In this document: in pieces, positions 1,794 to 24,674 of the stretch | Layout: every line of letters begins with the position of its first letter | Position numbering within the stretch: position 1 is the first letter of the stretch | Origin: a virus | Taxonomy: Duplodnaviria; Caudoviricetes | Length of the DNA stretch: 40,335 nt | Virus record (IMG/VR): IMGVR_UViG_3300027640_000210 | Coordinates: 1 to 40,335 of that record | Reading direction: 5' to 3' (one strand) | Notes under the pieces: generated by a model | The model's database searches: none | What the model was told of the DNA's origin: nothing | The model's input: only the letters and a program-made list of their open reading frames with translations | Position numbers and translations under genes: made by a program

Positions 1794-2978
1794 ATGGCAA
1801 TGGCACAGACGAAGGAGACGCCCGGCCAGGCCCTTGAGCGGGTGCGCCCGCAGGAGCGGGCCCTGGTGCAGGCAGCGAGCGAGCTCGGGATCCTCAAGGA
1901 GGCCGGGGGCGCTCTCATGATCGACCTGTCCAGCCCGGAGCTTGCACGTCGGTACATAGTGCTCGCACCGGCGGCGACGCTCGTGCAGGCGGATCCGAAC
2001 TTCACCCCGGGGATTTCCGTGGTGTCGATCGACCCGGACCCCGATGCTGGCGACGTGTACCCGATCGAGAAGGGCGTCGGGGGCAAGGTCAAGACGCTCG
2101 CACTCACCAAGGTGGGCCTGCGCAAGCTCGGCGACAAGGCGGGCATCGAACACCTGCCGCCCAGGATCGAGTACCACGGGAAGAACCTGACAGTCACGGC
2201 CGCCATCCGTTTTCGGAAGCCCGACGGCACCTTTGCCATCGGGTACGGCTCGCAGCACTGGATGTCGGATAGCGAGTACGAGGATGTCGAGAACCAGTGC
2301 CCCGAAAGCTGGGGAAGCGGTGACAAGAAGCACGTACTCGACGCCCGGGAGCGCGCGGATTGGATCCGCAAGCGCTGGACGCAGGTGCGCAAGTCGAACC
2401 TGCGGATGACCGAGTCGAAGGCACTGAGCGCGGCATACCGGGACAGTGGCCTTCCCGGACTGAAACAGAAGTACGCCCCTGAGGAGTTCTGGTGTATCAA
2501 GGACGGCCATCGCATCCCCAGGCCCTTCCTGGTCACCTCGACCACGTTCACCCCTGACACGAGAGACATCCGCGTTCTCGGCATGCTCATGACCGGCGGC
2601 GAGCAGGCGACCAACCTGCTCTACGGACCCGCCGCGCTCCCGGCCCACACAGACACGATCGACGTCGACGCCACCGAGCACGAGGATCCGCCGGCGAACG
2701 TCGACCCCGAGACCGGGGAGCTGTTCCCGGACGAGCCGGACGAGCCGGACGAGCCGGACGAACCGGCGACCTTCGGCGAGCGTCCGGAGAGCGACCCGAA
2801 GATCCCGAGCGGGGAGCACAAGGGCCTGCCCATCTCAGAGGTCGCGCGCGAGCACCCGGACTACGTGCGGGAGACGTTGCTGCACTCTGGCAGCGCCAAG
2901 TGGGGCACCGCCTCCGAGGCTTGGCTCATCTACTGGGGCCATGCGGTGGGGGGTGATGACGATGACGTCCAGTTCTAG
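1794..2978 (+). CDS. Conserved phage protein, candidate ssDNA-annealing/recombination protein
   Basis: 394 aa, directly upstream of sbcD/sbcC-like genes; VDPETGELF motif, GEHKG hairpin motif and SSB-like acidic tail DDDDVQF. Function is inferred. Confidence 0.5.
   Translation: MAMAQTKETPGQALERVRPQERALVQAASELGILKEAGGALMIDLSSPELARRYIVLAPAATLVQADPNFTPGISVVSIDPDPDAGDVYPIEKGVGGKVKTLALTKVGLRKLGDKAGIEHLPPRIEYHGKNLTVTAAIRFRKPDGTFAIGYGSQHWMSDSEYEDVENQCPESWGSGDKKHVLDARERADWIRKRWTQVRKSNLRMTESKALSAAYRDSGLPGLKQKYAPEEFWCIKDGHRIPRPFLVTSTTFTPDTRDIRVLGMLMTGGEQATNLLYGPAALPAHTDTIDVDATEHEDPPANVDPETGELFPDEPDEPDEPDEPATFGERPESDPKIPSGEHKGLPISEVAREHPDYVRETLLHSGSAKWGTASEAWLIYWGHAVGGDDDDVQF
2730..2766 (+). repeat. 9-bp tandem repeat (GACGAGCCG x4, encodes DEP)
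   Basis: Directly visible in the sequence; the last copy has one mismatch. Confidence 0.85.
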
Positions 2979-2988
2979 TGGTCTCGGC

Positions 2989-4221
2989 ATGACCACGATT
3001 CGACTAGCCCATACGGCCGACTGGCACATCGGTAGCTCGTACCACCTTGGCGACGAGAGCAAGGACGGACTCAACTCCCGGTTGCGGGACTACGAAGACG
3101 CGATCCTTCGAAGCTGTCGGCAGATGGTCGAGGAACACGCCGACGTCGTACTCTTCGCCGGCGACGGATTTCGGAACAGTACTCCGACCCCAACCGAACA
3201 GGCCGTCTTCCGTCGCGCGATGGACGTGCTCTGCAACGCGAATATCCCGGTGCTCTGCATAGTCGGGAACCATTGCCTCCCCCGCGCCCCCGGCCGCACC
3301 CATGCCCTCGCGATCTTCAACGGCTACCGAGGCGGCGTCACGGTGATCGACCGGCCGGAGGTGGTGACGATCAAGGGCCTGGCGATTGCGTGTCTGCCGT
3401 GGTTCTCCCGCGGGCACCTTGCCGCCGCAGATCCTGACTTCGAACGCCTCACCCTCGACGAGCAGAACGCCCGCATCGTCGAGCTGTCCCTCGCGGTGCT
3501 CCGCAAGCTCGGAGCTGAGGCGGAGGCGCAGGCCATGCCGCTCGGCTCGATGTTACTGGCCCACGGCTCCATTGGCGGCTCGGTGGTCGGCGCGGAGGGG
3601 AGTACCGCGTTCTTCCGGGAGCCGGTGCTTCCGCTCTCGGAGTTGCGGGGGCTGCCCTTCCGGTACCAGGCATGGGGGCATTTGCATCGGGCGCAGACCC
3701 TCGACGCAGCAGGCGTCGACGGGCGCGTCAGGTATTCGGGCTCTATCGAGCGCATCGACTTCAACGAGGCACTGGAAGACAAAGGCTGGTGGCTCATCGA
3801 GCTCGGCGCTGGCGACCCGGGTCTCGAGGATGACTACAACGTGACGTGGCGATCAAGCTCACCGCGCCCCTTTGCGGACATCGACCTCGTGGACCCAACC
3901 GGCTGGGAGTCGGAAATCTTCAGTCTGAACGGAACGATTCCCGGGGCAATCGTCAGGGTGAAGTACGAGGCGACACCGGAAGAGGCCCGCACCGTCGATC
4001 ATCAGGCCATCCGGCGCGCACTCTACGCGGCCGGCGCGCTCAAGGTCCACGGACCCATCGCCACCATCCGTCACTCCGTGACCGAGGCCGCGCCCACGCT
4101 CACAGAGGAGACGGACGTGTTCTCGGGCTGGACGGAGTACGCGGACCGGCTCGGGCTCAGTGACCACGAGAGAGAGCGTCTGGACCGGAAGGTCTGCGAG
4201 GCGCTGGAGGTGACGGGATGA
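2989..4221 (+). CDS. sbcD: SbcD/Mre11-like metallophosphoesterase nuclease
   Basis: Motifs HTADWH, FAGD, GNH, GHLH, YSGS. Start could be 2956/2962. Confidence 0.9.
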   Translation: MTTIRLAHTADWHIGSSYHLGDESKDGLNSRLRDYEDAILRSCRQMVEEHADVVLFAGDGFRNSTPTPTEQAVFRRAMDVLCNANIPVLCIVGNHCLPRAPGRTHALAIFNGYRGGVTVIDRPEVVTIKGLAIACLPWFSRGHLAAADPDFERLTLDEQNARIVELSLAVLRKLGAEAEAQAMPLGSMLLAHGSIGGSVVGAEGSTAFFREPVLPLSELRGLPFRYQAWGHLHRAQTLDAAGVDGRVRYSGSIERIDFNEALEDKGWWLIELGAGDPGLEDDYNVTWRSSSPRPFADIDLVDPTGWESEIFSLNGTIPGAIVRVKYEATPEEARTVDHQAIRRALYAAGALKVHGPIATIRHSVTEAAPTLTEETDVFSGWTEYADRLGLSDHERERLDRKVCEALEVTG

Positions 4222-4457
4222 GCCCGACAGCCACATACACACTAGCCCGCGAAGACGCCATCGAAGCGATCCACGGTCTGCCCCGGGTCGCCCGGCAGAT
4301 CCTCTACCAACTGGCTGGGGAGGTCGCGTACTTCGAACGGCGCACAGACAGCACGTCGGCATACGACATGCCGCGCGCTCATGCCGAGCTCCAAGTCGCC
4401 CTGCAGATGTTCGAGCTGGCCGTCAAGGCCGCGGGAGGGCACTACCATGAGAGCTGA
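4218..4457 (+). CDS. Hypothetical protein
   Basis: 79 aa ORF coupled (ATGA) between sbcD and sbcC; RBS GGAGGTG. Confidence 0.6.
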   Translation: MSPTATYTLAREDAIEAIHGLPRVARQILYQLAGEVAYFERRTDSTSAYDMPRAHAELQVALQMFELAVKAAGGHYHES

Positions 4458-6756
4458 GTCCCTGACACTCAAGGACTTCAAGAGTTACCAGGACGCCGAC
4501 ATCGACTTTTCCGGGCTCTGGCTGGCCTCGGTGGTCGGAGCGAACGGCGCCGGCAAGTCGAGCCTCCTGGAGGCGATCGCCTTCGTGCTCACCGGCGCGC
4601 GGTCCATTCGCTCGCTCGATTCCTTCATCCGCCAGGGCGCGGAGGAGTGCCGCGTGGCACTCACCTTCTCGACCGGCGGGAAGAGATACCGGCTCACGCG
4701 CACGCGCTCCTCCCGCGGATCCGGCAAGAGCACGCTGGAGCTGGCGCGGCAAGACGAGAGCGGACTGTGGGCGGCGGAAGGAACGGGCGCCAGGGACACA
4801 GAGGAGCGCGTCCGGCAGATCCTCGGCTGTGACGAGGACACGCTGCTGCAGACCGCCATTGTGAGCCAGGGCGACGCCGGGAGCTTCTTCGCGCTCCGGC
4901 CCGCCCAGCGGCTGGAGGCCCTCGGGTCGATCCTCCGGCTCGATGAGGTGTACCAGCCGCTGGAGTCGCACTTCAAGGGCCTGGCGGCCACGGCGAAGGC
5001 CGATCTTGAAACGGCCCGCCGGGACGTTGAACGCCTCGAGGTGGACGTCGCCCGGCTGGAGCACACGAAGGACATGCTCGTACTGGCCCAGATCGACGTG
5101 GATTGCGCCTATGGCGACCTGCGGTGCGACGAGGAGGCACTCGAGGAGGCCAGGACCGCCCTCCGTGGTGTCAGCGCTCGCGCGGCAGACTACGAGCTCG
5201 CGGTGGCCAAGCGGGATGAGTTGATCAGGCGAAGGGTCGACCTGGTGACTCGGGCCGGCAGCCTGAAGGACGAATCTGACGGTCTGCTCGCTCGTATCGA
5301 GACTCGCGAGAGCCTTGAGGCTGAACTCGCCGGCAAGGACGCCCTCGAGGGCGAACGGGACCGGCAGCTGAAGTACAAGGAGCAGGACTTTCAGGCGGAG
5401 GCAGATCGGCGACGACTGACGGACGCGGTCCATGACGCCGAGAGCGCCGTCATCCAAGCCCGCGACGACTGGAAGGCCGCGCAGAAGACACACGACGTGG
5501 CCGCGCGGGCGTACTCAGACGCGGTCGATGCGACCGACCGTCTGGGTACGGCGGGCGGTGAAGCAACCGCGCGCCTAAAGAGGATAGAGACTGCGGAGCT
5601 GCCCATTTGCGATCGCTGTGGGCAGGACATTGCGGATCAAGCACGCGAGCGGACGCTGACCAGTATCAAGGCCGAGCTCGCGGCTATCGAAGAGCAGTAC
5701 CCTGCTGCCCGAGAGGCCCTCGACAGAACGGCTAAGCAGATAGCCAGCACTAAGAAGGCGCTGACAGATCTCGAAGTCCGCGGCGCCGAGGCGAAGCAAG
5801 CGCTCGAAGCCCGCAGGGCTGAGATTGAAGCACTTTCGGCGCCGAGGTTCTGGCCCGAGAACCTCGACCGCATCGAGAACAAGCTACGGGCACTCGCTGA
5901 GATCCCCGCGCAGCTGGCCCAGATCGCCACTCTCGAGGAACGCCTCGCCACGGTCGCCGCTGAACGCGAGTGCCTCGCTGTGGCTCTCCAGGCGCCCGAC
6001 CTGGTGGATGCCCTGGTTGAAGCCGAGCAGGCCGTCAGCGCGGCACAGGGCGCGCGTGTGCGGGCAACGGAGGCGGAGGCCACCGTGCGATCGGCCGAAG
6101 AGGCGCTCGCCGGATCCCGGCGGCTGTTCTCTGACGCCGAGAAAGCAGCCGCCCGCCTCGAGGGTGAAGTCAAGTCGCTCGAACCCTGCCGGGAGGCTCT
6201 GGCGGATACGACGGCCGCGACCAAGTGCCTCGAACAGGAGCAGGCAGACGCGGAGCTCGTCAGGAAAGCCATGAGCAAGTGGGGCATCCCGGCACTCATC
6301 GTCGGCAACGTGCTGCTCTCCCTCGAGGTGGAGGTCAATGAGCTCCTGAGTTTGTACGAAGGCTCGCTGGCGCTCCGGTTCGAGAGCGAGCGGGAGACCC
6401 GCGACGGGGCCCGGGACAGTCTGGAGATCATCGTGTTCGATGGCCAGGACTGGCGTCCCTTCGAGACCTTCAGCGGCGGCGAGCGGTACCGGGTGGCGAG
6501 CGCCATGCGGCTTGGACTGGCGCGGCTGCTGGCTCACCGCTCGGGAGCACGGGTCGAGACGTTGATCGTCGATGAGCCTGAGGGACTCGACGCCCCCGGG
6601 CGCGCGCATCTCGCGCGGATCCTGGAGCGTATGAGTGAGAGCTTCGGGCTCACCCTGCTCCTGACTCACTACGACGACCTCAAGGATGCCATGCCGCAGC
6701 AGATCGCGGTGTCGCGCGGCGAGGACGGGCTGTCGAGAGTGGAGGTGGTGGCGTGA
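4447..6756 (+). CDS. sbcC: SbcC/Rad50-like SMC ATPase
   Basis: Walker A GANGAGKSS, Q-loop SQG, coiled coil with zinc hook CDRC, signature FSGGE, Walker B LIVDE, H-loop LTH; RBS GGAGGG before ATG 4447. Confidence 0.92.
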   Translation: MRAESLTLKDFKSYQDADIDFSGLWLASVVGANGAGKSSLLEAIAFVLTGARSIRSLDSFIRQGAEECRVALTFSTGGKRYRLTRTRSSRGSGKSTLELARQDESGLWAAEGTGARDTEERVRQILGCDEDTLLQTAIVSQGDAGSFFALRPAQRLEALGSILRLDEVYQPLESHFKGLAATAKADLETARRDVERLEVDVARLEHTKDMLVLAQIDVDCAYGDLRCDEEALEEARTALRGVSARAADYELAVAKRDELIRRRVDLVTRAGSLKDESDGLLARIETRESLEAELAGKDALEGERDRQLKYKEQDFQAEADRRRLTDAVHDAESAVIQARDDWKAAQKTHDVAARAYSDAVDATDRLGTAGGEATARLKRIETAELPICDRCGQDIADQARERTLTSIKAELAAIEEQYPAAREALDRTAKQIASTKKALTDLEVRGAEAKQALEARRAEIEALSAPRFWPENLDRIENKLRALAEIPAQLAQIATLEERLATVAAERECLAVALQAPDLVDALVEAEQAVSAAQGARVRATEAEATVRSAEEALAGSRRLFSDAEKAAARLEGEVKSLEPCREALADTTAATKCLEQEQADAELVRKAMSKWGIPALIVGNVLLSLEVEVNELLSLYEGSLALRFESERETRDGARDSLEIIVFDGQDWRPFETFSGGERYRVASAMRLGLARLLAHRSGARVETLIVDEPEGLDAPGRAHLARILERMSESFGLTLLLTHYDDLKDAMPQQIAVSRGEDGLSRVEVVA

Positions 6757-12718: not shown

Positions 12719-12767
12719 CACTCACGGCGGACTCGTGATAGCTTGACAAGCGTTGGGATGCTAGAAT
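12715..12767 (+). promoter_or_regulatory. Putative late promoter
   Basis: TTGACA(12715)-N18-TAGCTT(12739) with extended TG; second TTGACA at 12743 and TG-C-TAGAAT at 12759-12767. Confidence 0.65.
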
Positions 12768-12776
12768 TGCGCCCTG

Positions 12777-12806
12777 AGGGCCGCTCACCCCCGAGCGGCC
12801 CTTTTC
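12777..12806 (+). terminator. Intrinsic terminator just downstream of the late promoter
   Basis: 10-bp stem AGGGCCGCTC / GAGCGGCCCT, 6-nt loop, ending in TTTTCT. Confidence 0.7.
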
Positions 12807-12838
12807 TATGCCCCCATATTTCCGAGGAGGCAACCCCC

Positions 12839-14050
12839 GTGTCCGAATGGTCCAACCGCCTGATCGGATACGGCTTGGTGGACGCCGATCAGCTCCTCGC
12901 CAACCCTGCGAATTGGCGTCGTCACCCGAACGTGCAGCGCGAGGCCCTGCGGGGTTCGCTGGATGATCTGGGGTGGATCGCACCGGTGATCGTCAACCAG
13001 ACCACGGGCTTCATGATCGACGGGCATGCCCGAGCGGAGGAGGCCCTCGCTCGCGGTGGCCAAGTGCCCGTGGCCTACGTTGAACTCACGCCGGCGGAAG
13101 AGGCCGAGGCGCTCGCCATCCTCGATCCCATCGGCGCCATGGCGACGGCCGATGCCGACGCCCTGGACGCGCTGCTCCGCGAGGTGAGTTCGGGGAGCGA
13201 GGCGATCCAGGCGCTACTTGCCGACATCGCCAAGGGCGCAGGCCTGTACCTCGACCAGCCTCTCGCGGAAGACCCCGGCGCCGACCTTGACCACGCCGAC
13301 GAGCTCCGGGAGAAGTGGGGCACGGAGGCTGGGCAGCTCTGGGAGCTCGGAAAGCACCGGCTGCTCTGCGGAGATGCGACTTCCGAACCGGACGTCGGCC
13401 GACTGCTTGCCGGCGTCGTGCCGCTGCTCATGGTGACCGACCCTCCGTACGGCGTGGAGTACGACCCGACGTGGCGAGCCCGAGCGGGGGTGAACCTGAA
13501 CCGCGGCAAGCTGGGCGAGGTCTCGAACGACGCCCAAGCCGACTGGCGCGAGGCCTGGGCTCTCTTCCCCGGCGCAGTCGCCTACGTCTGGCACGCGGGT
13601 CGTTTCGCCTCGACAGTCCAGGAGTCGATCGAGGCCGCGGGCTTCGAGATTCGGTCCCAGATCATCTGGGCCAAGGACCGCTTCGCCCTTTCGCGAGGCC
13701 ACTACCACTGGCAGCACGAGCCCTGCTGGTATGCCGTTCGGCGTGGGGACAAGGGGCACTGGTGCGGGGACCGCTCGCAGAGCACGCTCTGGAGCATCCC
13801 GGCCCGGGAGGATGCCGGCCACGGGCACGCCACCCAGAAGCCCGTCGAATGCATGCGCCGACCAATCGAGAACAACTCCTCGCCGGGGCAGGCGGTGTTC
13901 GACCCCTTCCTCGGCTCCGGAACCACCCTGGTCGCCGCTGAGCAGGCGGACCGCGTTTGCTACGGGCTGGAGCTCGAGCCCAAGTACGTGGCTGTGACTC
14001 TCGAGCGGATGCAGGGCATGGGTCTCGAGCCTCGACTGCTGGACGACTGA
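12839..14050 (+). CDS. ParB-like N-terminal domain fused to an N6A/N4C DNA methyltransferase
   Basis: NPANWRRH...IDGHAR (ParB-like); HRLLCGD, TDPPY, HATQKP, DPFLGSGTT; RBS GAGGAGG before GTG 12839. Confidence 0.92.
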   Translation: MSEWSNRLIGYGLVDADQLLANPANWRRHPNVQREALRGSLDDLGWIAPVIVNQTTGFMIDGHARAEEALARGGQVPVAYVELTPAEEAEALAILDPIGAMATADADALDALLREVSSGSEAIQALLADIAKGAGLYLDQPLAEDPGADLDHADELREKWGTEAGQLWELGKHRLLCGDATSEPDVGRLLAGVVPLLMVTDPPYGVEYDPTWRARAGVNLNRGKLGEVSNDAQADWREAWALFPGAVAYVWHAGRFASTVQESIEAAGFEIRSQIIWAKDRFALSRGHYHWQHEPCWYAVRRGDKGHWCGDRSQSTLWSIPAREDAGHGHATQKPVECMRRPIENNSSPGQAVFDPFLGSGTTLVAAEQADRVCYGLELEPKYVAVTLERMQGMGLEPRLLDD

Positions 14051-16120: not shown

Positions 16121-17581
16121 GTGGGCGACGTCACGGTGCAGGTACTGGAGGCGCCCGGCAAGGCCGAAGGCCAGTCGAAACAGCTCGACCTGGCCAAGTT
16201 CGCCTACGACGAGCACCGCTGCGTGACCCCTCCGGTCGATCCCCAGGTCCTGGCCCAGCTCTACAGCCGCAACGTCGCTCACAAGGCCTGTGTGGACGCC
16301 AAGGCCGTGAACACGGTAGGCCTCGGCTGGAAGTTCGATCCGAAGCCGGGGACGGACCCAGCGGACACCGGCGTGCAGGAGCTCGCGGGAGAACTCGAGG
16401 GCTGGCTGGACCTTCTGGCCCGCCGCGACGGGGAATCGTTCAGCGACCTGCTTCTCTCCGCCAAGAAGGACGAGGAGGCGGTGGGCTGGGGGGCGATTGA
16501 GATCTCCCGCAACGGCCGGGGGCAGGCGGACGGCCTCTACCACGTCCACGCCTTTACGCTCAGGCGTCGCAAGGACCGGGACGGCTGGGTCCAGAAGGTG
16601 GCGGGCGACTACGTCTACTTCCGCAACTACCGCCGGGCGGCTGCCGACACGGAGTCTCCGGAGCGCTTCGAGGGCACGAACGAACTCCTGATCGTGGGCG
16701 AGACGGCCCCGGACAGTCCCTTCTATCCACTCCCTGACCACGTGCCCGCCCTCGGAGACATCGCCGGCGACGAGGCGGCTCAGGCCTATCAGCTCCAGTT
16801 CTTCCGCAACAACGCCGTGCCGCGGTTGGCCATCGTGGTGGAGGGCGGGAAGCTGGATGAGGACGTCAAGGACTACCTCCTCGCCTACATGCGCGAAGGG
16901 ATCCGGGGGGATGCCCACAAGACCTTGCTCCTTGAGTCCTCCACCAACGACCAGGTCAAGATCCACATCGAGAAGCTCACTGTGGGCACCAGCGAGGAGG
17001 CCGACTTCATGGCCTACCGGCGTTTCGTCGTGGGCCAGGTGATCATGTCTCACCGGGTCTCGCCCTCCAAGGTGACCTTGGTGGAGGACGCCAACCGGGC
17101 CAACTCCCGCGACCAGGACAAAACCTTCAAGGAACAAGTGTGCAAGCCCGACCAAGAGCGCTGGGAGAAGCGCATCCAGTGGCTGCTTGAGGATGAGTTC
17201 GGACCCGACCTCCCTCTTCAGTTTCGCTTCGAAGAGATGGACCTCGCCGACGAGGAGCAGATCGCCCGCACCCGTACCCACTACATGGGGGCGCTCACGA
17301 ACAACGAGGTGCGCGCCTTCATCGATCACGGCGACGCAGGTATGGATCCTGACACCGGGGCGGTCACCGATCCGGATCTGGAGGAGTGGGGCCGGCAGCC
17401 GTTCGAAGCGCCTACTCCCGCGCTGCCTGGCGCCCAGGAGGGCCTCGGTGACCTGGAGCCGCTCAGCAAGCGCGTCTCACCGGTTCACCGGGCCTTCATC
17501 GCTGAGGTGGCGAAGCTGGGCTACCTGGTGGAGGAAATCCGGGAACTCGCCGGTCCGGATCCGGAGCACGCGGGCTACTAG
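16121..17581 (+). CDS. Portal protein (PBSX/XkdE-like)
   Basis: HKAC...K, G.G.IEI.RN..G....LYH, FFRNNAVP, H.V.P, T.NEVR motifs; follows the terminase. Confidence 0.92.
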   Translation: MGDVTVQVLEAPGKAEGQSKQLDLAKFAYDEHRCVTPPVDPQVLAQLYSRNVAHKACVDAKAVNTVGLGWKFDPKPGTDPADTGVQELAGELEGWLDLLARRDGESFSDLLLSAKKDEEAVGWGAIEISRNGRGQADGLYHVHAFTLRRRKDRDGWVQKVAGDYVYFRNYRRAAADTESPERFEGTNELLIVGETAPDSPFYPLPDHVPALGDIAGDEAAQAYQLQFFRNNAVPRLAIVVEGGKLDEDVKDYLLAYMREGIRGDAHKTLLLESSTNDQVKIHIEKLTVGTSEEADFMAYRRFVVGQVIMSHRVSPSKVTLVEDANRANSRDQDKTFKEQVCKPDQERWEKRIQWLLEDEFGPDLPLQFRFEEMDLADEEQIARTRTHYMGALTNNEVRAFIDHGDAGMDPDTGAVTDPDLEEWGRQPFEAPTPALPGAQEGLGDLEPLSKRVSPVHRAFIAEVAKLGYLVEEIRELAGPDPEHAGY

Positions 17582-17959: not shown

Positions 17960-18024
17960 GGGGGCTCAAGTCTTCAATGAATAAGGGCGCGACGAAGTTC
18001 CGCAGCCGTTCACAGAGGTGAATC

Positions 18025-18049
18025 AGGCCCCGCAAGGGGCCTTTCTTCT
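18025..18049 (+). terminator. Intrinsic terminator
   Basis: AGGCCCC-GCAA-GGGGCCT followed by TTCTTCT. Confidence 0.65.
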
Positions 18050-18068
18050 GCTCCGAATCGGAGGAAGC

Positions 18069-20723
18069 TTGACTCACGCCCTCGCCGAGCTCATCCGCAA
18101 GGTCGACACTGAGGAAACTGAGGCCTGGCTGCGCGAAGGCATCCCCCGTGGCGCGGGCCTCCCGCCGGCCAAGGTCCTCGCCGCGCAGATTCTGACCCTC
18201 TGTGATGCCCTCGTCGTCGTCTTCCGCCAGCAGCGGAAGCGCTACGCCGCCTACATCCGCGACTACCCTCCGGCCCAGCCCGTTCTCAAGAAGAAGCACC
18301 CGTTCGACGATCTTCCTCCCGGCACAGCGCTCGAATGGCAGACGTGGCTCGCAGAGGTGATCTCTCGCGCGGGCGCGGTAGAGGTCGACGCAGAAGAGCT
18401 TGCGCAGGCGCTGCAAGCCGCGGCCCGCGCGGGCGTGGGGGAGGGCGCGGTCGCTGGGGCCAGGGCAGCCGGGCTGCTCCCGGCCGGCGCTCAAGAGCTG
18501 ACCGCGGCACAGGCGCGGAAGGCGCTGGTGGAGGTCCGGGCATTCGAAGCGTCCACCGACCGGGCGCGGCAAGCAATCCGGCAAGCGCTGGAGCAAGCAT
18601 CCAGGACCAAGGGATTGCGGGCCCTCGTACTCCGGGACGGCGCCGGGCGGATCGTGGCGGCGGCGAGCTATCGAGTTCAGAAGGGGCTCCTTGAGATCGA
18701 GTATCTGGGGGCACTCGAGCGGGAAGTGCCCGGCACCGGCGTCCAGCTCATGCGTGAGCTCGCCGCGGTGGCTGTCAAGAGCAAGCGTGGCCTCGCAGTC
18801 ACCGCCGGTCCGGAGTCGGAAGCCTTCTTCTCCGGGCTCGGGATGCAGCGTGCATCGGCGGCCGCGGGGGGCCCGGTCTTCTCCCTGGCGCCCGGTTCTG
18901 CAGAGGGTCTGGCCGCCGGTAGCTTCGCGGGGCAGGTGCCCGTCTGGCTCACGGCCGGTTGGCTTGACGGCCCGGCGGCTACGTTCCGGGCGGCAGACGG
19001 TGCGGCGTCTCTGGTCGCTCTGAACGGGAGTACGCTGGCTGAGGCGGCTTATGAGCTCGGCGAGAAGGGGCCTCTCAAGGTTACGAGCTTCGACCTGGGC
19101 GCAGACGTTGCTCCCGGGGTCGAGCGGCGGATGCTGCGCGAGTTGGCCTCGGTGGCGCGGGAGGCGGAGCGAGGCTTAGAGCTCCCGCTGGAGCCCGGGC
19201 GGACGGCCCTCTACGAACGTCTGGGAGCAAACGCGAGGGCCGCCTGGGGAGTTCAGGAGGCGCGCCTGCTGGCCTCAGGGCTCTCGGCCCTCCCCGGCTT
19301 CTCGGGGCAACTCAGCTGGGAACTCGGGGTCGCCGGCGCACCCGAGTGGCTCGGGGGGCACCGGATCCGGGGTGTGGTCGACGAGATCTCCGCTACGACT
19401 CACCGGGCCTTGGCGAACACGCTGGCTGCTGGACTAGAGGCCGGGGAGACCACCGAGCAGCTGGCCCGCCGCGTGATGCGCCTCGACAACGCCTTCGGCC
19501 GGATCCGAGCTGAGCGCATCGCCCGGACCGAGGTGCTGACAGCGAATCGCTGGGGCGCCCGGTTCATCGCCCTGGCCGGCGGTGCCACCGAGCACGAGTG
19601 GCACGCACGGATGGATCTGCGCACCAGACGCTGGCACCGAGAGGCCAACCGGCAGCGCCGACCGATCATGGAGCCCTTCGTGGTCAACAACCGCCTCGGC
19701 GAGCCGGAGAAGCTCATGGTGCCGGGGGACTACGTGTCCTTCGATGCGGGACCGGACAACACCATCCAGTGCCGCTGCAGTGTGCGCTACCACAAGCCCG
19801 GCGTCACCTACGAGCCACACCGGCCCCAGCAGCATGGGCTGACCGGGAGCAGGCGTGCGCCCTTCGCCGTCGTGGCGCAGCAGGATCCTTTGACCAAACA
19901 CGCCGATCGGGTAGAGAAGCATCGCCCGGGCGGACACGATCACGACCAGTCGACCCACGGCCGGCGGAGGGCAGCCAAGCCCGCGGGCAAAGAGCCCCAG
20001 ATCTACCGGCCACCGGCCGAGCGAATCCGCGCACTTCGGGAGCTGGCTGAGGACTACGTCCGCGCCTGGGCAGAACAGGAGGGACTGTCCTTCGAGGAGG
20101 GCATGGCGAGAGCCCGGACGCTCATGGATGAGGCCGCCGCGGGCCCGATCAAGATCAACACGACGGTGGATGTCGCGCATGAGATCCTCGACGACGGGCG
20201 CTTCGAGACGCAGTTCGAGTCCGGTGACAGCGGCGGGAGCTACGCTCCAGATCTGCGCACCGACGCCGAGGCGGCCGGACTCGGGATCCCGGAAGACCTC
20301 GACCCCGCGCGTAGGCCCGTGTACGGCTACACGCATGGCTCCGCTCTGCAGTACGGGGGGATTCAGTGGGTCCTAAAAGACTCAGTCAAGGAGCGCAGCA
20401 CGATCACCCTGGGTGACAGTCTCGGAGGCTTCCTGGAGGCGGCATACGATCGTCCGGACCAGGAGACGGGCCTGCTTGGCACCCCCGTGGGAGCGCCGAC
20501 GCTGGAGGGATTCCACGGGAAGTGGCGCACAGAGCTGCTCCTTCGCCGCGGACTCAGTTCAGTCCCGTTCATCGAGGCGCAAATCCAAGGCGGGGTGACT
20601 CTTGACGATGTTCAGTCGGTGCGGGTGCGCGCGGGAGGCTACAGCGGGTGGACGGATGAGCACGAGGCGCTCCTGAACCGCTTGATAGATCTGGGCTTTG
20701 ATGCGTACATGGAGTCGTTATGA
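18069..20723 (+). CDS. MuF/SPP1-gp7-like minor head protein with two GNAT-like domains and a C-terminal toxin-like (DUF3626-like) domain
   Basis: MuF core RAERIARTE...W....D.RTR..H...PGD....QCRC (about 19365-19780); GNAT-like segments at about 18615-18850 and 18980-19230; C-terminal FETQFE..SGG, RPVYG, QYG, GDS, IEAQI.GGV motifs; RBS GGAGG before TTG 18069. Confidence 0.8.
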   Translation: MTHALAELIRKVDTEETEAWLREGIPRGAGLPPAKVLAAQILTLCDALVVVFRQQRKRYAAYIRDYPPAQPVLKKKHPFDDLPPGTALEWQTWLAEVISRAGAVEVDAEELAQALQAAARAGVGEGAVAGARAAGLLPAGAQELTAAQARKALVEVRAFEASTDRARQAIRQALEQASRTKGLRALVLRDGAGRIVAAASYRVQKGLLEIEYLGALEREVPGTGVQLMRELAAVAVKSKRGLAVTAGPESEAFFSGLGMQRASAAAGGPVFSLAPGSAEGLAAGSFAGQVPVWLTAGWLDGPAATFRAADGAASLVALNGSTLAEAAYELGEKGPLKVTSFDLGADVAPGVERRMLRELASVAREAERGLELPLEPGRTALYERLGANARAAWGVQEARLLASGLSALPGFSGQLSWELGVAGAPEWLGGHRIRGVVDEISATTHRALANTLAAGLEAGETTEQLARRVMRLDNAFGRIRAERIARTEVLTANRWGARFIALAGGATEHEWHARMDLRTRRWHREANRQRRPIMEPFVVNNRLGEPEKLMVPGDYVSFDAGPDNTIQCRCSVRYHKPGVTYEPHRPQQHGLTGSRRAPFAVVAQQDPLTKHADRVEKHRPGGHDHDQSTHGRRRAAKPAGKEPQIYRPPAERIRALRELAEDYVRAWAEQEGLSFEEGMARARTLMDEAAAGPIKINTTVDVAHEILDDGRFETQFESGDSGGSYAPDLRTDAEAAGLGIPEDLDPARRPVYGYTHGSALQYGGIQWVLKDSVKERSTITLGDSLGGFLEAAYDRPDQETGLLGTPVGAPTLEGFHGKWRTELLLRRGLSSVPFIEAQIQGGVTLDDVQSVRVRAGGYSGWTDEHEALLNRLIDLGFDAYMESL

Positions 20724-20929
20724 AGCTGAAGGCCGCGTGGCACAACAGCGAGGGCACACGAGTCTACTCGCAGCCTGGCACGGACGAGGTGCTGGTGTGG
20801 CATCCCGATCGCGATCTCCCGGCCCTCCGGGTGGCGCATGTGGCAGGCATTCACAAGTGGGGGCGCTGGATGCCTCTGGACCCCCCGGAGGAGGACGACG
20901 TTCCCGTTCCCGAGGAGGACGTGCTATGA
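20720..20929 (+). CDS. Small acidic protein, candidate immunity protein
   Basis: 69 aa, ATGA-coupled to the MuF-toxin stop codon; function inferred from position. Confidence 0.5.
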   Translation: MKLKAAWHNSEGTRVYSQPGTDEVLVWHPDRDLPALRVAHVAGIHKWGRWMPLDPPEEDDVPVPEEDVL

Positions 20930-21330
20930 GATCCCTGGTGCCACTGAAAGCAGCCATCGACGAGTCCTTTGCGGCTCCCGTTGCGGCCCTTGCGGCCACC
21001 CTCGATCAACTCGAGGCCGTAGCCAAGCATGGCAGTGGAGACCAGAGTCCGCACGGGCGGAGGGGCAGCGGCAACCCCGCCGGAGCAACCCCGGCTGATC
21101 GCGGCAACCAGGCCGCGAGGGGCGACGCTCTGACACGCTCGACCGCCCAAGCCGCGGCTGCCTACAAGGAGGCGCAGGCGGCGGTCCAGGCGGACATCAA
21201 GGAACTCGCCAAGATCGTCGGGAAGCCGATGCCCGGTGGCAGATTGGACTGGGGTTACGTCGGAAACATGACGGAGGCCCGCCGGCAGGTTGCCGAGCTG
21301 CTGTCCTTCCTGCGGGGCGACGAGGAGTAG
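20926..21330 (+). CDS. Hypothetical protein with scaffold-like leader, KH-DQSxHG motif and helical C-terminal domain
   Basis: RBS GAGGAGG, ATG 20926; AVAKHGSGDQSPHG; C-terminal AY...WGYVG...ELLSFL. Confidence 0.7.
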   Translation: MRSLVPLKAAIDESFAAPVAALAATLDQLEAVAKHGSGDQSPHGRRGSGNPAGATPADRGNQAARGDALTRSTAQAAAAYKEAQAAVQADIKELAKIVGKPMPGGRLDWGYVGNMTEARRQVAELLSFLRGDEE

Positions 21331-21380
21331 ATCTGTTCCGGTGCCGTAGCCGCCGGAGTCAAAACGCGCGTGAAGCACAC

Positions 21381-21406
21381 AAAGGCCCTCCGGGGCCTTT
21401 TTCATT
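21381..21406 (+). terminator. Intrinsic terminator
   Basis: AAAGGCCC-TCCG-GGGCCTTT followed by TTCATT. Confidence 0.75.
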
Positions 21407-21420
21407 GGAGGTGGTGAGCG

Positions 21421-22443
21421 GTGGCCAAGACGACCGGTAGCTACGAACAGCGCATGAGAGCGGTGGACGCCGCGGTGAGGGAAGCGACCAAGGCGCCCGC
21501 GTCGCCGAGTCCCACGGAGGCGCCGTCTCTTTCCGCCTATGTCGAGGAGCACCATGAGGATCACGTGGTGGTGCGGGACTACGATCGGAACGAGTTCTGG
21601 AGTGTGCCTTACACCGTGGCCGCGGACGACTCCGTCACACTCGGTGGCTGGACCCAAGTGCAGCAGGTCTACGCCGAAGTGACAAAGGAGCTCAGGCTCC
21701 TGGTCCCAATCGAGAAGTCCGCCGGCGCCCGCAGGATCACCTACGGCGTCGTCCTCGAGCCGGACACCGAGGACCTCCAAGGCGACGTCATGAAGGCCGA
21801 GGACATCGAACTCTCCGCCCACGCCTGGATGGAGGAGTCGCAGGTCGGCGGCGAGATGCACACCGAGATCGTCAAGGGCGCCTTCGTGGTGGAGTCCTTC
21901 CTCGCCCCCGCGGACTTCGACGTGGATACGGCCGAGGGCACGGAGACGGTCAAGAAGGGCTCCTGGGTTCTCGCCATGCGCTGGCCGGAGGAGATCTGGA
22001 AGCGCATCGAGGGCGGCGAGCTCACCGGCTACTCGGTGGGCGGCCAGGGTGTGCGGCTGGACGCGGAAGATGTGGCGAAGCACGCCAGCCACGATCAGAG
22101 CACCCACGGGAGCCGCACCCGGCACGGGCGCTCCGAGGACAGCGGGCGGACCCACACCACCCGCGACGGCGCGAAGGTCGAAGAGAAGATGAAGGTCAAG
22201 CGGGTGGACAACGGGGAGCGCTTGGTCGGCTCGAACGGCGTGGAGATAGACCTTCGGAACTCCATGTTCGCGAACAGCCAGAAGGCTCCCAAGATCACCG
22301 AGCCAGCGTCCTGGGCCGTGCACCCCACGTCGGGCGGCCGCGCCGACCGGTCCACGGACAAGATCATCTGGAGCAAGGCCAACACAACCCTGGCGGACTT
22401 CATGGCCTCGCTGCCCCCAGGCGAATACGAACTGGCGACCTGA
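21421..22443 (+). CDS. XkdF-like prohead protease with C-terminal extension
   Basis: YGVVLEPD..D.QGD, H, VVESFLAP, KKGSWV, IW..I..GELTGYSVGG; RBS GGAGGTGG. Confidence 0.88.
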   Translation: MAKTTGSYEQRMRAVDAAVREATKAPASPSPTEAPSLSAYVEEHHEDHVVVRDYDRNEFWSVPYTVAADDSVTLGGWTQVQQVYAEVTKELRLLVPIEKSAGARRITYGVVLEPDTEDLQGDVMKAEDIELSAHAWMEESQVGGEMHTEIVKGAFVVESFLAPADFDVDTAEGTETVKKGSWVLAMRWPEEIWKRIEGGELTGYSVGGQGVRLDAEDVAKHASHDQSTHGSRTRHGRSEDSGRTHTTRDGAKVEEKMKVKRVDNGERLVGSNGVEIDLRNSMFANSQKAPKITEPASWAVHPTSGGRADRSTDKIIWSKANTTLADFMASLPPGEYELAT

Positions 22444-22456
22444 GAGGAGACGGGCC

Positions 22457-23026
22457 ATGGCAAAGCGACTCACCATGCTCCGCGTTGACGAGGTCAGCGT
22501 GGTGGACAAGGCGGCCAACGGGAAGCGCTTCCTGATCCTGAAGAGAGCGGAGGAAACACCGCTCGACGACGACGCGACCGACGGCGGAGTCCGCGGCTGG
22601 GTCAAGGGAGCGATACAGAAAGCGGCCGGCATCTCCGGCCCGGACAACGGAGGTTCGGACATGACGGCGGACGAGATCAAGAAGGCGGTACTGGAGGCGG
22701 CCGAGGAGGCCCTGGCCCCGATCGTGGAGCGGGTCGACAAGCTCGAGGACCTCTTCGAGGAAGAGGAGCAGCCCGAAGGCGACCCCGTGTCCAAGGTCGA
22801 CGATGGTGACGGGGGCGACGAGGAACCCACCACGGGCCTCACCGAGGAGGCCATCACCAAGATCGTCAGCGAGGCAGTGGCCGCGTCCATCGATCCCATC
22901 GTCAAGCGCCTGGAGACGGTGGAAGGCGCCGCGGGTGCGCGTCAGTCCGGCACCCCGGAGGGCGCTCACAAGGTGCTGAAGGCCGATGGCACCCGTTCCT
23001 GGGAAGGCTCCGGCATCTTCACCTAA
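22457..23026 (+). CDS. Scaffolding protein carrying the EVSVVDKAAN protease strand
   Basis: N-terminal LRVDEVSVVDKAANGKRFLILK; acidic linkers; duplicated amphipathic helix; located before the capsid gene. Confidence 0.7.
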   Translation: MAKRLTMLRVDEVSVVDKAANGKRFLILKRAEETPLDDDATDGGVRGWVKGAIQKAAGISGPDNGGSDMTADEIKKAVLEAAEEALAPIVERVDKLEDLFEEEEQPEGDPVSKVDDGDGGDEEPTTGLTEEAITKIVSEAVAASIDPIVKRLETVEGAAGARQSGTPEGAHKVLKADGTRSWEGSGIFT

Positions 23027-23119: not shown

Positions 23120-24058
23120 ATGGATCCTGTCCAGGCCGTCCGGTCCATCCAGAAGATCGTCACCGGGGACGTGACCTACGGGCTGCTCTCCCCGGAGCAG
23201 GTCCAGCAGTTCTACGTCCAGATCTACGAGCAGATCCCCTTCTCCGGCCTTCACCGCCACGAGACGCGCACGGCCAAGACCGGCGAGCTCGACAAGATCG
23301 CGGTCGGCAGCCGGCTCCTGCGGGCCAAGACCGAAGGCCCGACCGGGGACGACGGCTACCGGGTAGGCGCCACGTTCGGGCGCGTGCCCTACACCTGCGT
23401 GCGCATCAAGCTGCCGTGGGAAGTCTCCGAGGACGTCTTCCACGACAACATCGAGGGCGAAGCCCTGGAAGACAAGCTCATGGGCATGCTGACCACGCAG
23501 CTCGCCATCGACCTCGAGGACCTGCATTGGAACGGCGACTCGACCGACGTGAGCGGTGACGCCGATTTCCTCAACCTCAACGAGGGCTGGTGGAAGCAGC
23601 TGGTGGCCGGGGCGCATGTGGTGAACGGTGCCGCCATCAACGCGGGCGCCATCGAGAAGAGCCACTTCTTCGCGGCCTACAAGGCCATGCCCGACAAGTA
23701 CAAGGCTCGGGGTACGCTGCGCTGGTGCATGAACGCGGCCACCCAGATCGCCTGGATCGAAGCGGTCTCCAACCGGGCCACGGGCGCCGGCGATATGGCA
23801 CTCCTCGGCGTGGACGCCGTCAACAGCCCCTTCGGTATCCCGGTGGTGAAGGTGCCCTCGCTGGCCGATGGCAAGCTCGCCCTCCTCGATCCGATGAACC
23901 TGATCACGGTCAACACCTGGGACGTCCGCATCCGCAAGGCCGCCGAGGGCAAGAGCGCGGTCATGAATGACATGCGCTACTACAGCGTCTTTCTGGACGA
24001 CGACCCGGTGATCGAGGAGACGGACGCCACGGTCATCGTCACCGGGATGACCATCTAA
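23120..24058 (+). CDS. Major capsid protein (XkdG-like, HK97 fold)
   Basis: GLLSPEQ..F, DNIEG, DLEDL..NGD, GW.K, MPDKY, P.NLI motifs; about 312 aa; strong codon bias. Confidence 0.92.
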   Translation: MDPVQAVRSIQKIVTGDVTYGLLSPEQVQQFYVQIYEQIPFSGLHRHETRTAKTGELDKIAVGSRLLRAKTEGPTGDDGYRVGATFGRVPYTCVRIKLPWEVSEDVFHDNIEGEALEDKLMGMLTTQLAIDLEDLHWNGDSTDVSGDADFLNLNEGWWKQLVAGAHVVNGAAINAGAIEKSHFFAAYKAMPDKYKARGTLRWCMNAATQIAWIEAVSNRATGAGDMALLGVDAVNSPFGIPVVKVPSLADGKLALLDPMNLITVNTWDVRIRKAAEGKSAVMNDMRYYSVFLDDDPVIEETDATVIVTGMTI

Positions 24059-24149: not shown

Positions 24150-24674
24150 ATGGCGAAAAGCAAACCCACGCCCACGCCTACCTCGGCGCCGATAGAGGAA
24201 GCGCCGATAGAGGAAGCGCCGGTCGAGGAAGCGCCGGTCGAGGAAGCGCCGGTCGAGGAAGCGCCGGTCGAAGAGGCCGAGATTGCAGAGGCGTCGGTCG
24301 CAGAGGCCGAGATCGAACAGCCCCTCCCCGCGGGTTGGAGCAGCGAGGAGGCCGCACCTGAAGGCCTCGAGGCCCCCGGAGACGAGACGGTGGTCGATGA
24401 GGCCGCCGCGCGTACCCCCGGAGCCCCGCGCGAGTACGTGGTCCTGAACGGCCCGGCGAGCTTCGGCCCCGTGGTCATGAACGGTCAGAGCATTCGGGCG
24501 CGCGCCGGCGTCGTCTACCACCTGCCGAACGCCGAGGAGCGGGCCGACGTGCTGGCCACGGGCTTCTTCCGTGGCGCCGGCCCGGACGACGTCAAGAAGG
24601 CGGGCGTGGGCTCGGCCGGCACCATCACCCTCGAGTCCCTCCCTCCGGGCGCGCTCAAGGGCGGGCTCCGGTAG
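24150..24674 (+). CDS. Hypothetical head-associated protein with acidic repeat
   Basis: RBS GGAGG, ATG 24150; (AP[I/V]EE)n. Confidence 0.7.
   Translation: MAKSKPTPTPTSAPIEEAPIEEAPVEEAPVEEAPVEEAPVEEAEIAEASVAEAEIEQPLPAGWSSEEAAPEGLEAPGDETVVDEAAARTPGAPREYVVLNGPASFGPVVMNGQSIRARAGVVYHLPNAEERADVLATGFFRGAGPDDVKKAGVGSAGTITLESLPPGALKGGLR
24186..24305 (+). repeat. 15-bp tandem repeat (GCGCCG[ATA/GTC]GAGGAA x6 plus degenerate copies)
   Basis: Directly visible. Confidence 0.9.

Follow-up and report, generated by a model that had tools for sequence, protein, structure and literature searches.

The window analyzed here, a 40,335-nucleotide stretch from a Caudoviricetes virus (IMG/VR record IMGVR_UViG_3300027640_000210), carries a head module on its plus strand. 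Within this module, a His-rich peptide (hereafter, the tag) recurs in three neighboring proteins, each time directly behind a predicted protease site. The features of the region, read from the letters of the window and from profile and structure matches, are:

16121..17581, + strand: portal protein, given for context (PF04860, E 3e-23)
18018..20723, + strand: 901-aa head protein of the MuF (Mu gpF-like) type, carrying cargo at its C-terminus (PF04233, residues 466-589, E 4e-11)
19911..19919, + strand: predicted protease site 1, V-E-K (P3-P1), a putative cut whose P1 covaries with protease family
19917-19919 (K) and 19920-19961 (tag), + strand: tag copy 1 in the MuF protein, long form, K followed by HRPGGHDHDQSTHG
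20016..20720, + strand: cargo 1, predicted DUF3626-like domain with ADP-ribosyltransferase fold (AF2 mean pLDDT 74.5)
20720..20929, + strand: 69-aa ORF coupled to the MuF stop, positioned as in MuF toxin loci
20926..21330, + strand: stand-alone tagged protein, 134 aa, with helical leader, site, tag, and small helical cargo
20926..21027, + strand: leader of that protein, ending V-A-K, a candidate loading helix
21025-21027 (K) and 21028-21057 (tag), + strand: site 2 and tag copy 2, V-A-K followed by HGSGDQSPHG
21421..22443, + strand: 340-aa prohead protease of the XkdF family, carrying tagged cargo at its C-terminus (PF14550 at 97-212, E 2e-26; phrog_3017; BFVD XkdF matches)
22072..22110, + strand: predicted site 3 and tag copy 3 in the XkdF protease (K 22078-22080, tag 22081-22110), V-A-K followed by HASHDQSTHG
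22186..22440, + strand: cargo 3, folded beta-rich domain in the predicted structure
22457..23026, + strand: scaffold-like protein rich in [VILM]-x-K sites (phrog_3017, C-terminal part)
23120..24058, + strand: probable major capsid protein, whose residues 10-12 read I-Q-K (phrog_1623 'virion structural protein', E 4e-80)

An earlier sequence-only reading of this DNA had described a peptide common to three neighboring proteins, preceded each time by V-x-K and encoded by different codons. Our analysis bears this out: all three copies are in frame, the preceding residues read V-E-K, V-A-K, and V-A-K, and codon comparison confirmed that the copies differ. Across the six frames of the window, DQ..HG matched these three in-frame copies and nothing else (copy 2 being a variant that lacks the middle His). 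The pattern KH.{1,9}DQ..HG matched in 0/300 third-order Markov simulations of the window, and a single DQS.HG in 4/300. The same reading placed each copy at the border between a head part and a C-terminal domain, which is correct for the MuF protein (Pfam MuF end at residue 589, tag start at 635) and the XkdF protein (Pfam XkdF end at 212, tag start at 221); the 34-residue leader of ORF 20926 is not a recognized head-assembly domain. The MuF and XkdF tags lie in low-confidence AlphaFold linkers preceding folded domains, with pLDDT <50 over fragment residues 1-16 for copy 1 and over the residue 205-255 segment of the XkdF protein for copy 3.

Three effector domains had been proposed downstream of these tags; of these, only the MuF cargo could be identified as an effector with an enzyme fold. 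DUF3626 matched the MuF protein at residues 716-801, under the curated Pfam cut-off. The modeled cargo 1 resembles SopF (Foldseek E 8e-6; VIA-align Z 11.5, rmsd 5.5 over 211 residues) and DarT (Foldseek E 9e-4); on this model it is an ADP-ribosyltransferase fold and a predicted enzyme. A 69% identical counterpart of the 69-aa ORF lies behind the same cargo in locus L001, and we consider this ORF a candidate immunity or partner gene of the MuF cargo. Cargo 3 has homologues in L001, L004, L189, and L192; a near-length search yielded none, and Foldseek found no PDB fold match at E <= 0.001. Neither cargo 3 nor ORF 20926 matched a family in Pfam, PHROGs, ESM Atlas, or Foldseek PDB.

Sites of the same type occur in the predicted structural proteins. 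In the scaffold-like protein, 10 of 14 Lys residues fall in [VILM]-x-K, versus 3.0 expected. The product of 23120..24058, which gene position indicates is probably the major capsid protein, had 0 matches among PDB sequences, and its I-Q-K is also present in L592. The leader of ORF 20926 resembles the first scaffold helix (hhalign over 33 ungapped columns, P 0.0056, though with a probability of only 6.5%), and leaders of this type precede differing cargo in P0004, P0013, P0015, L001, and L592.

Beyond the window, we found 677 copies of the tag in 154 contig groups of uncultured phages, with the consensus H-x(2,4,6)-H-D-Q-x-x-H-G-[NSR]-[WR]. Hundreds of phage proteins conserve the motif, at positions between domains, and what follows it differs from one relative to another; none of these three checks refuted the earlier interpretation. 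Modules carry one tag each (median spacing 204 aa), up to a maximum of 20 in one 7,059-residue protein (P0002 carries 20 copies). The Lys had been read as part of the motif, and the tag as belonging to XkdF-type head modules. Both views need revision: the residue before the tag (P1) is a separate element that varies while the His tag stays constant, and the tag also accompanies other protease families. In a scan without the Lys requirement, K-H still stood upstream in 113/120 distinct matches; the 7 exceptions, from two contigs, had Phe or Tyr. P1 was uniform in 117/120 multi-tag proteins.

P1 was Lys in 34/34 phages with XkdF proteases (28/28 in the first set and 6/6 new contigs), though the first 28 XkdF domains are not independent, since clustering reduces them to 9 groups at 70% identity and 3 at 40%. 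It was non-Lys in 18/19 phages with other proteases, a comparison in which the non-Lys profiles had been built from seeds in these very loci. Mu-gpI-like proteases accompanied Phe/Tyr (4), DUF2213 Leu (2), phrog_9427 Arg (4), phrog_15531 Glu (3), and HK97-type S78 proteases Arg (4) or Ala (1). Arg therefore occurs with two protease families, so the mapping is not one-to-one, and the exception (L708) combined Lys tags with a phrog_21715/9427-like protease. No protease was identifiable in the fetched DNA of 5/12 hand-picked loci (L705, L694, L717, L835, and L702). With class-motif patterns chosen post hoc, the protease ORF of a phage was enriched in the motif of its own class where that class was Lys (98 vs 32), Arg (12 vs 4.3), Glu (11 vs 2.3), or Phe/Tyr (25 vs 13). 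For Leu there was no such excess (3 vs 5.0), and protease ORFs of the Lys class gave an off-diagonal Leu signal (54 vs 24).

By sequence comparison, then, P1 is nearly uniform within one phage and tracks its head protease. Since P1 changes with protease family, these data give strong comparative support to the earlier suggestion of cleavage at the motif, although the cut site and the proposed signal appear to be two separable elements rather than one. That P1 always adjoins the tag would also be expected if the tag did no more than supply the primed side of a longer site for protease recognition or timing, serving efficient cutting at cargo junctions. We regard this as very unlikely, given that one tag stands behind six P1 types, which proteases of different families read, and that the predicted structural substrates (scaffold and capsid N-terminus) have the P-side motif without the tag.

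Comparison among loci indicates that leader, putative cut site, tag, and cargo swap separately and that, in close relatives, other tag families occupy the same slot. A different tag with the same kind of site precedes homologous cargo in L004, L192, P0015, and P0005, and these alternative families do not start with His. The tag is accessory, because the same MuF-DUF3626 cargo occurs in L001 and P0016 without site or tag, and L003 and L592 encode MuF and protease without cargo. Leaders of only 6-12 residues still retain the site. Such leaders, too short for an obvious loading helix, would suit a tag that serves as a loading signal, binding scaffold, portal, or MuF before cleavage and having no later role, with the cut merely freeing the modules; the interchangeability of tag families and the loading of T4 cargo by short peptide tags (PMC9026906) point the same way. 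We nevertheless think this unlikely. One tag per polyprotein would suffice for loading, but every module has its own; even direct fusions to MuF, portal, or protease are tagged; the same tag serves phages of differing portal and protease families; and a Met directly before the tag was never seen (0/659). Methionine aminopeptidase requires G, A, S, T, C, P, or V after Met (PMC10052503).

Extensive cargo shuffling raises the question of whether the repeat could be a DNA-level recombination anchor or linker for exchanging cassettes, without a protein function. Synonymous identity among tag copies within 38 genomes was 0.58 versus 0.52 expected, and it slightly exceeded expectation in 30/38. However, amino acids are fixed while synonymous sites are near saturation, which largely refutes this explanation; the peptide is also retained in loci of 38-68% GC, and the preceding residue adapts to each protease. 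We therefore judge a DNA anchor extremely improbable.

Cargo fell into 90 clusters, and 67/87 cluster representatives had no Pfam match. Tagged modules elsewhere include ADP-ribosyltransferases (ART-PolyVal, PF18760, matches several), GNATs, and metallopeptidase-like and zeta-toxin-like domains, and activities may be mixed in one polypeptide (e.g., ART-PolyVal with a nucleotidyltransferase-like domain, or GNAT with DUF3626). No Pfam stretch listed for the multi-tag proteins examined crosses a tag. Within head modules, MuF, portal, or protease carries the tagged cargo as a fusion, or else the cargo lies behind a short leader. As to whether MuF is a universal partner, MuF profiles matched only 16/75 groups of >=4 kb, a figure from partial loci and weak profiles. 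As the substrates of prohead proteases can include intracellular proteins other than those of the virion (PMC12991175), the cut might instead be an activation switch outside the virion, with cargo remaining in the producing cell and being freed or activated there late in infection. This seems very improbable to us in view of the fusions to MuF, portal, and protease and of the fact that SPP1 MuF gp7 is a capsid component (PMC5576092); one cargo module also matches an 'internal virion protein' of Syn5 and P60 (a weak match by annotation only, E about 1e-2). We also considered the tag as a basic DNA hook. Tag plus 6 residues had net charge <= 0 in 426/512 cases and 86% of cargo segments were net acidic, making a simple electrostatic DNA tether unlikely.

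The tagged proteins resemble several known systems. The polyvalent proteins of Iyer et al. 2017 (PMC5512222) are multidomain proteins of late or head regions, including ARTs, GNATs, metallopeptidases, and MuF/portal fusions, and are predicted to be injected. Like them, tagged proteins can join at least two disparate activities per polypeptide (including, in the window, MuF and an ART fold), and their genes lie among those for virion proteins or they are MuF or portal fusions. Iyer et al. proposed a zincin-like MPTase, present in about 36% of members, as a processing enzyme and assemblin-like peptidases, which are rare C-terminal domains, as likely having a processing role (PMC5512222). The window's three tagged proteins have no zincin-like MPTase match in Pfam; SprT/DUF6782/ATLF-like matches appear as tagged cargo in other loci. 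A junction tag or per-domain cut site is not described in the accessible portions of PMC5512222.

T4 internal proteins IPI-III and Alt, cut by gp21, offer a parallel in their leader, prohead-protease site, variable cargo including an ADP-ribosyltransferase, and delivery with the DNA (PMC9026906), which for the phages here is a prediction. The T4 capsid-targeting sequence, however, lies upstream of the L/I-x-E cut and is removed (according to the available part of PMC9026906), whereas every copy of the His tag lies on the C-terminal side of the predicted cut and would remain attached to the cargo; the T4 role is one that the separate leaders alone could fill. The His tag further differs in recurring once per module in polyproteins and in being common to several protease families. 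Unlike gp21, the window protease is an XkdF (PF14550) with Lys-type sites, and Glu-type members have phrog_15531.

MuF polymorphic toxins (PMC5576092; Bxa, PMC11699363) likewise join MuF to a variable C-terminal enzyme with a small ORF behind. The window has this layout, with PF04233 and an ART fold followed by an ORF of 69 aa (<150 aa being the size criterion), and the C-terminal MuF cargo varies among relatives (L001 has it, whereas L003 and L592 do not). Unlike in MuF toxins, tagged cargo is also found on protease, portal, or stand-alone proteins, and many modules can be chained. Neither 'motif' nor 'cleav' appears anywhere in the accessible text of Jamet et al. 2017 (PMC5576092). In SPN3US and phiKZ, the prohead protease (gp245/gp175; PMC10052503, PMC9026906) processes many presumed ejection proteins of the head at a motif of three residues. 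Those cuts remove propeptides, in contrast, and a conserved retained tag or cassette polyprotein is not described in the available portions of these two sources.

Because the tag precedes swappable modules and lies directly behind a P1 that tracks the head protease, we consider it probable that the tag is a new N-terminus exposed by the prohead protease, which would retain freed effectors in the head and aid their ejection with the DNA. Precursors would enter the prohead through fusion to MuF, portal, or protease, or through a leader binding the scaffold core. The prohead protease would very likely cut between P1 and the His (in the window, XkdF would do so after [VILM]-x-K, a motif in which the scaffold also abounds), so that released domains would each begin with His. 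The tag would then most likely bind some conserved component of the virion or the host as a small knot built on His and possibly bridged by metal. By analogy with T4 Alt and with MuF toxins, early action in the infected cell may be expected of the effectors (here, the predicted ADP-ribosyltransferase fold and two small domains).

A bolder proposal, which strikes us as possible but rather doubtful, is that tailed phages share a protease-independent ejection code, in which a peptide that becomes active only once the head protease has freed its N-terminal His forms a small metal-bridged knot, addressing any domain behind it for retention in the mature capsid and delivery with the genome, and in which several unrelated families of tag are equivalent in function. 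A general metal model is weakened by the absence of the middle His in copy 2 and by alternative tags that do not start with His. If such a code were true, injected arsenals and protease specificity would be readable from sequence alone, and the tag would be portable for protein delivery.

To our knowledge, a detailed picture of how phages select proteins for carriage in the capsid and injection exists only for the T4-like and jumbo groups. The pairing of site and tag suggests testable answers as to how polyvalent and MuF effectors are selected as cargo and released from their carriers. It marks module borders in hundreds of mostly unannotated effector polyproteins, and the tagged modules form a ready list of candidate early anti-host or anti-defense enzymes. 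It also predicts P1 specificities (Lys for XkdF, Leu for DUF2213, and Phe/Tyr for Mu-gpI-like proteases); we found none of these in print, nor a published cleavage rule for XkdF proteases.

Literal motif strings retrieved 0 papers, though subscription journals and the supplementary alignments of Iyer 2017 may hold the motif. Searches with 39 tag segments returned 0 NCBIfam families, 2 single-member Pfam matches, and 1 PDB match (E 3.3) outside the His core. The tag region had no tblastn match in 50,697 cultured-phage records (a weak search for short motifs) and the protease region no blastn match; P0006 and an L571 protein matched through cargo only. In other scans for the tag, many single matches are chance hits in GC-rich frames. 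A scan of GTDB genomes gave 103 matches, about the estimated chance level; 12 had a spaced upstream His. The four GTDB loci that look genuine (L566, L571, L592, and L627) are all from Actinomycetota. A prophage-like region of Streptosporangium longisporum JCM 3106 carries two Glu-type tagged genes and provides a cultured host for testing.

The head module of this 40,335-base provirus record lies on the plus strand, with the following features:

Terminase, plus strand, part of the head module
16121-17581, plus strand, portal
18018-20723, plus strand, MuF protein
20720-20929, plus strand, 69-residue ORF
20926-21330, plus strand, 134-residue ORF
21421-22443, plus strand, XkdF protease
22457-23026, plus strand, scaffold
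23120-24058, plus strand, probable capsid

The tag H-x(2,4,6)-H-D-Q-x-x-H-G-[NSR]-[WR] occurs in MuF and the protease and, as a variant without the middle His, in ORF 20926-21330, exactly where the sequence-only reading had placed it. Across six frames, D-Q-x-x-H-G was found nowhere else in the window; the full pattern appeared in 0/300 simulated windows, and a tag profile (39 segments) returned the same three places and nothing further. The MuF tag starts 46 residues past the end of the Pfam match to MuF; in the protease, the tag starts 9 residues past the XkdF match. AlphaFold models both as low-confidence linkers with folded domains behind them. N-terminal to the MuF domain are two tandem untagged domains (residues ~165-425, window ~18510-19290), which match each other weakly, are kept in four related loci (L001, L003, L004 and L592) and had no Pfam match in the window scan; by eye they resemble GNATs. 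Upstream of the terminase lie an SbcD/SbcC-like pair (2941-6756) and a ParB-fused DNA methyltransferase (12743-14050), and the ORF after the capsid gene (24150-24674) contains a tract of tandem acidic E-E-A-P-[IV] repeats.

The tag is real and widespread. An IMG/VR DNA-pattern scan requiring K-H found 147 loci, with 243 distinct in-frame copies across 95 loci. Pooled with four further scans that did not require Lys and grouped by shared sequence, the total reached 677 copies in 154 contig groups, counting only copies in which K, F, Y, L, R or E precedes the His. The tag has the core H-D-Q-x-x-H-G-[NSR]-[WR], and the first His lies 3 residues upstream of it in 395 copies, 5 in 232 and 7 in 21, with even spacings rare, though most scans searched with H-D-Q and H-G already set, so these figures are partly selected. 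A profile search that scored 7,991 protein candidates yielded 251 clusters. In the 120 multi-tag proteins examined (119 matches listed plus P0014), tags were a median of 204 residues apart, and a single protein of 7,059 residues (P0002) holds 20. The tag matched no model in Pfam, NCBIfam or PDB, and its motif strings did not occur in the main texts of the published papers searched. Synonymous identity was 0.58 versus 0.52 expected across 38 genomes, in keeping with the earlier claim that conservation acts on the protein.

The HK97 protease cuts after Lys, and the Lys had been taken together with the tag as one motif. Lys does precede the window tags (as V-x-K), but this residue (P1) goes with the protease and is not part of the tag. 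The first scan without a Lys requirement gave K-H in 113/120 matches, with a hydrophobic residue at P3 (V 66, M 16, L 16, I 10); the other seven came from two contigs in which each copy had Phe or Tyr at P1, and in both the head protease belongs to phrog_976 rather than XkdF. Among contig groups of 4 kb or more (84), a protease was detectable in 38; the fetched DNA of the other 46 showed none. Lys occurred with XkdF (28 groups), Phe/Tyr with a Mu-gpI-like protease (4), Arg with phrog_9427 (3), Leu with DUF2213 (2) and Glu with phrog_15531 (1), with 0/38 exceptions; the phrog_15531 protease of the Glu locus L571 was found after the rule had been set. New scans (108 non-overlapping loci) added six Lys-XkdF, one Glu-phrog_15531 and one Arg-phrog_9427 pairing. 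Twelve hand-picked loci included four with Arg and an HK97-type S78 protease, one with Ala and an S78-like protease, and the sole exception, L708, with Lys and a phrog_21715/9427-like protease. Overall, Lys accompanied XkdF in 34/34 cases and other residues the other proteases in 18/19; since the first 28 XkdF domains form only nine clusters at 70% identity, these represent just a handful of independent P1 switches. P1 was also the same throughout the protein in 117/120 multi-tag proteins.

For the Lys, Arg, Glu and Phe/Tyr classes, and not for Leu, the protease ORFs of the phages themselves were enriched in their class motif (patterns were post hoc, with one off-diagonal signal). In the window, [VILM]-x-K holds 10 of the scaffold's 14 lysines (3.0 expected) and 8 of the protease's 18 (3.6 expected); it is mildly high in the terminase (7 versus 3.5 expected) and at or below expectation in SbcC, SbcD, the methylase and three tail ORFs. 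T4 gp21 and SPN3US gp245 also follow three-residue P3-P1 rules (PMC9026906, PMC10052503). These comparisons make it quite likely that the prohead protease cuts between P1 and the His.

The scaffold's first 30 residues (22457-22550) are almost invariant in six relatives and are reminiscent of a strand motif in assemblin-fold proteases. The window XkdF ORF (21421-22443) is without such a motif, and the same split recurs in L001, L005, L189 and L192. The scaffold may complete the protease in trans, and cutting would then be limited to the prohead.

Complete segments behind tags (n = 512) fell into 90 clusters with a median length of 234 residues; one 16-kb locus alone holds 16 tagged segments from 11 clusters. 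After three likely chance representatives were dropped, 20 of the 87 scanned matched Pfam at E <= 0.01, including ADP-ribosyltransferases (VIP2-type, Arr-type and PolyVal), GNATs, SprT/DUF6782-like metallopeptidases, a nucleotidyltransferase-like domain and a ParB-like domain. Other tag-bearing proteins carry zeta-toxin-like, NUDIX, PARP-like and topoisomerase IB domains. In the window, the domain behind the MuF tag (cargo 1) has an ADP-ribosyltransferase fold by structure comparison of its AlphaFold model (SopF Z 11.5, DarT Z ~8), and sequence and structure searches assigned no family to those behind the ORF 20926-21330 and protease tags (cargo 2 and 3). Two MuF proteins in tag-bearing loci (L556:11369-15466 and L717:9884-12784) also have intein or Hint domains, and at L835:7339-8226 a tag-like peptide after Phe precedes a topoisomerase IB domain.

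As anticipated, the block around the tags varies among close relatives and the head module is kept. L001 still has the tag on its protease and a pair of small tagged genes, but its MuF carries the window's MuF cargo without a site or a tag; in L003 both MuF and protease are without cargo; and L592 places a tag and a different cargo behind the same helical leader. Cargo 3 follows the His tag in L189, and its homologues in L004 and L192 follow [VI]-x-K and another peptide, W-A-P-G-P-N-A-G-W-R, which shares a single chain with the His tag in L192. The protein P0015 joins an ORF-20926-type leader, the W-A-P-G-P-N-A-G-W-R tag and a cargo 1 of 74% identity; in P0005 a homologue of cargo 2 stands behind a third tag, G-G-P-G-S-G-x-x-G-H; and L558 has three tag families, almost all after Leu. 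Leader, site, tag and cargo therefore shuffle independently. At least four other tag families lie behind predicted protease sites: W-A-P-G-P-N-A-G-W-R, G-G-x-G-S-G-N-F-G-H, G-H-P-F-R-G-N-Q and F-[DN]-P-x-Q-P-R-D-x-x-G-x-W (and H-P-R-G...G-S-F), at L004:2062-4326, L192:4114-6660, P0015, L558, P0005, L179/L180 and L708.

The tag probably acts after cleavage, because it sits on the side staying with the cargo, occurs once per module even in chains anchored by MuF, portal or protease, is missing from scaffold and capsid sites, and is constant across proteases. Even leaders of only 6-12 residues have a site at their end, and 0/659 tags directly follow Met (any preceding residue allowed). His is not among the P1' residues given for methionine aminopeptidase in the available part of PMC10052503, making proteolysis the plausible route to a free His1. 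The two or three fixed His, odd spacing and neutral-to-acidic charge suggest that the tag could form a metal-bridged knot, and disfavour a basic DNA hook; window copy 2, like the other tag families, deviates from the knot features. The ORF 20926 leader is a candidate loading signal, aligning ungapped with the first scaffold helix (weakly, probability 6.5%). The earlier proposal of cleavage plus a retention or ejection signal is well backed for cleavage and less so for the remainder, and we lean only somewhat towards the full model, in which the exposed tag would retain the freed effector in the head or help eject it with the DNA.

Tagged proteins share the architecture of polyvalent proteins and MuF toxins, and the tag lacks two defining properties of the T4 capsid-targeting sequence. 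The portions available of Iyer 2017 (PMC5512222), which proposes metallopeptidase processing of polyvalent proteins, and of Jamet 2017 (PMC5576092), Iyer 2021 (PMC7824862), Iyer 2022 (PMC9503650) and the Bxa paper (PMC11699363) describe no tag. The system would resemble T4 internal-protein loading and cutting, but acting on polyvalent and MuF-type effectors. A possible bench system is L571 (NZ_BAAAWD010000016.1), a prophage-like region in the cultured strain Streptosporangium longisporum JCM 3106 that encodes a fused portal-MuF protein, the phrog_15531 protease and two tagged genes of the Glu type.
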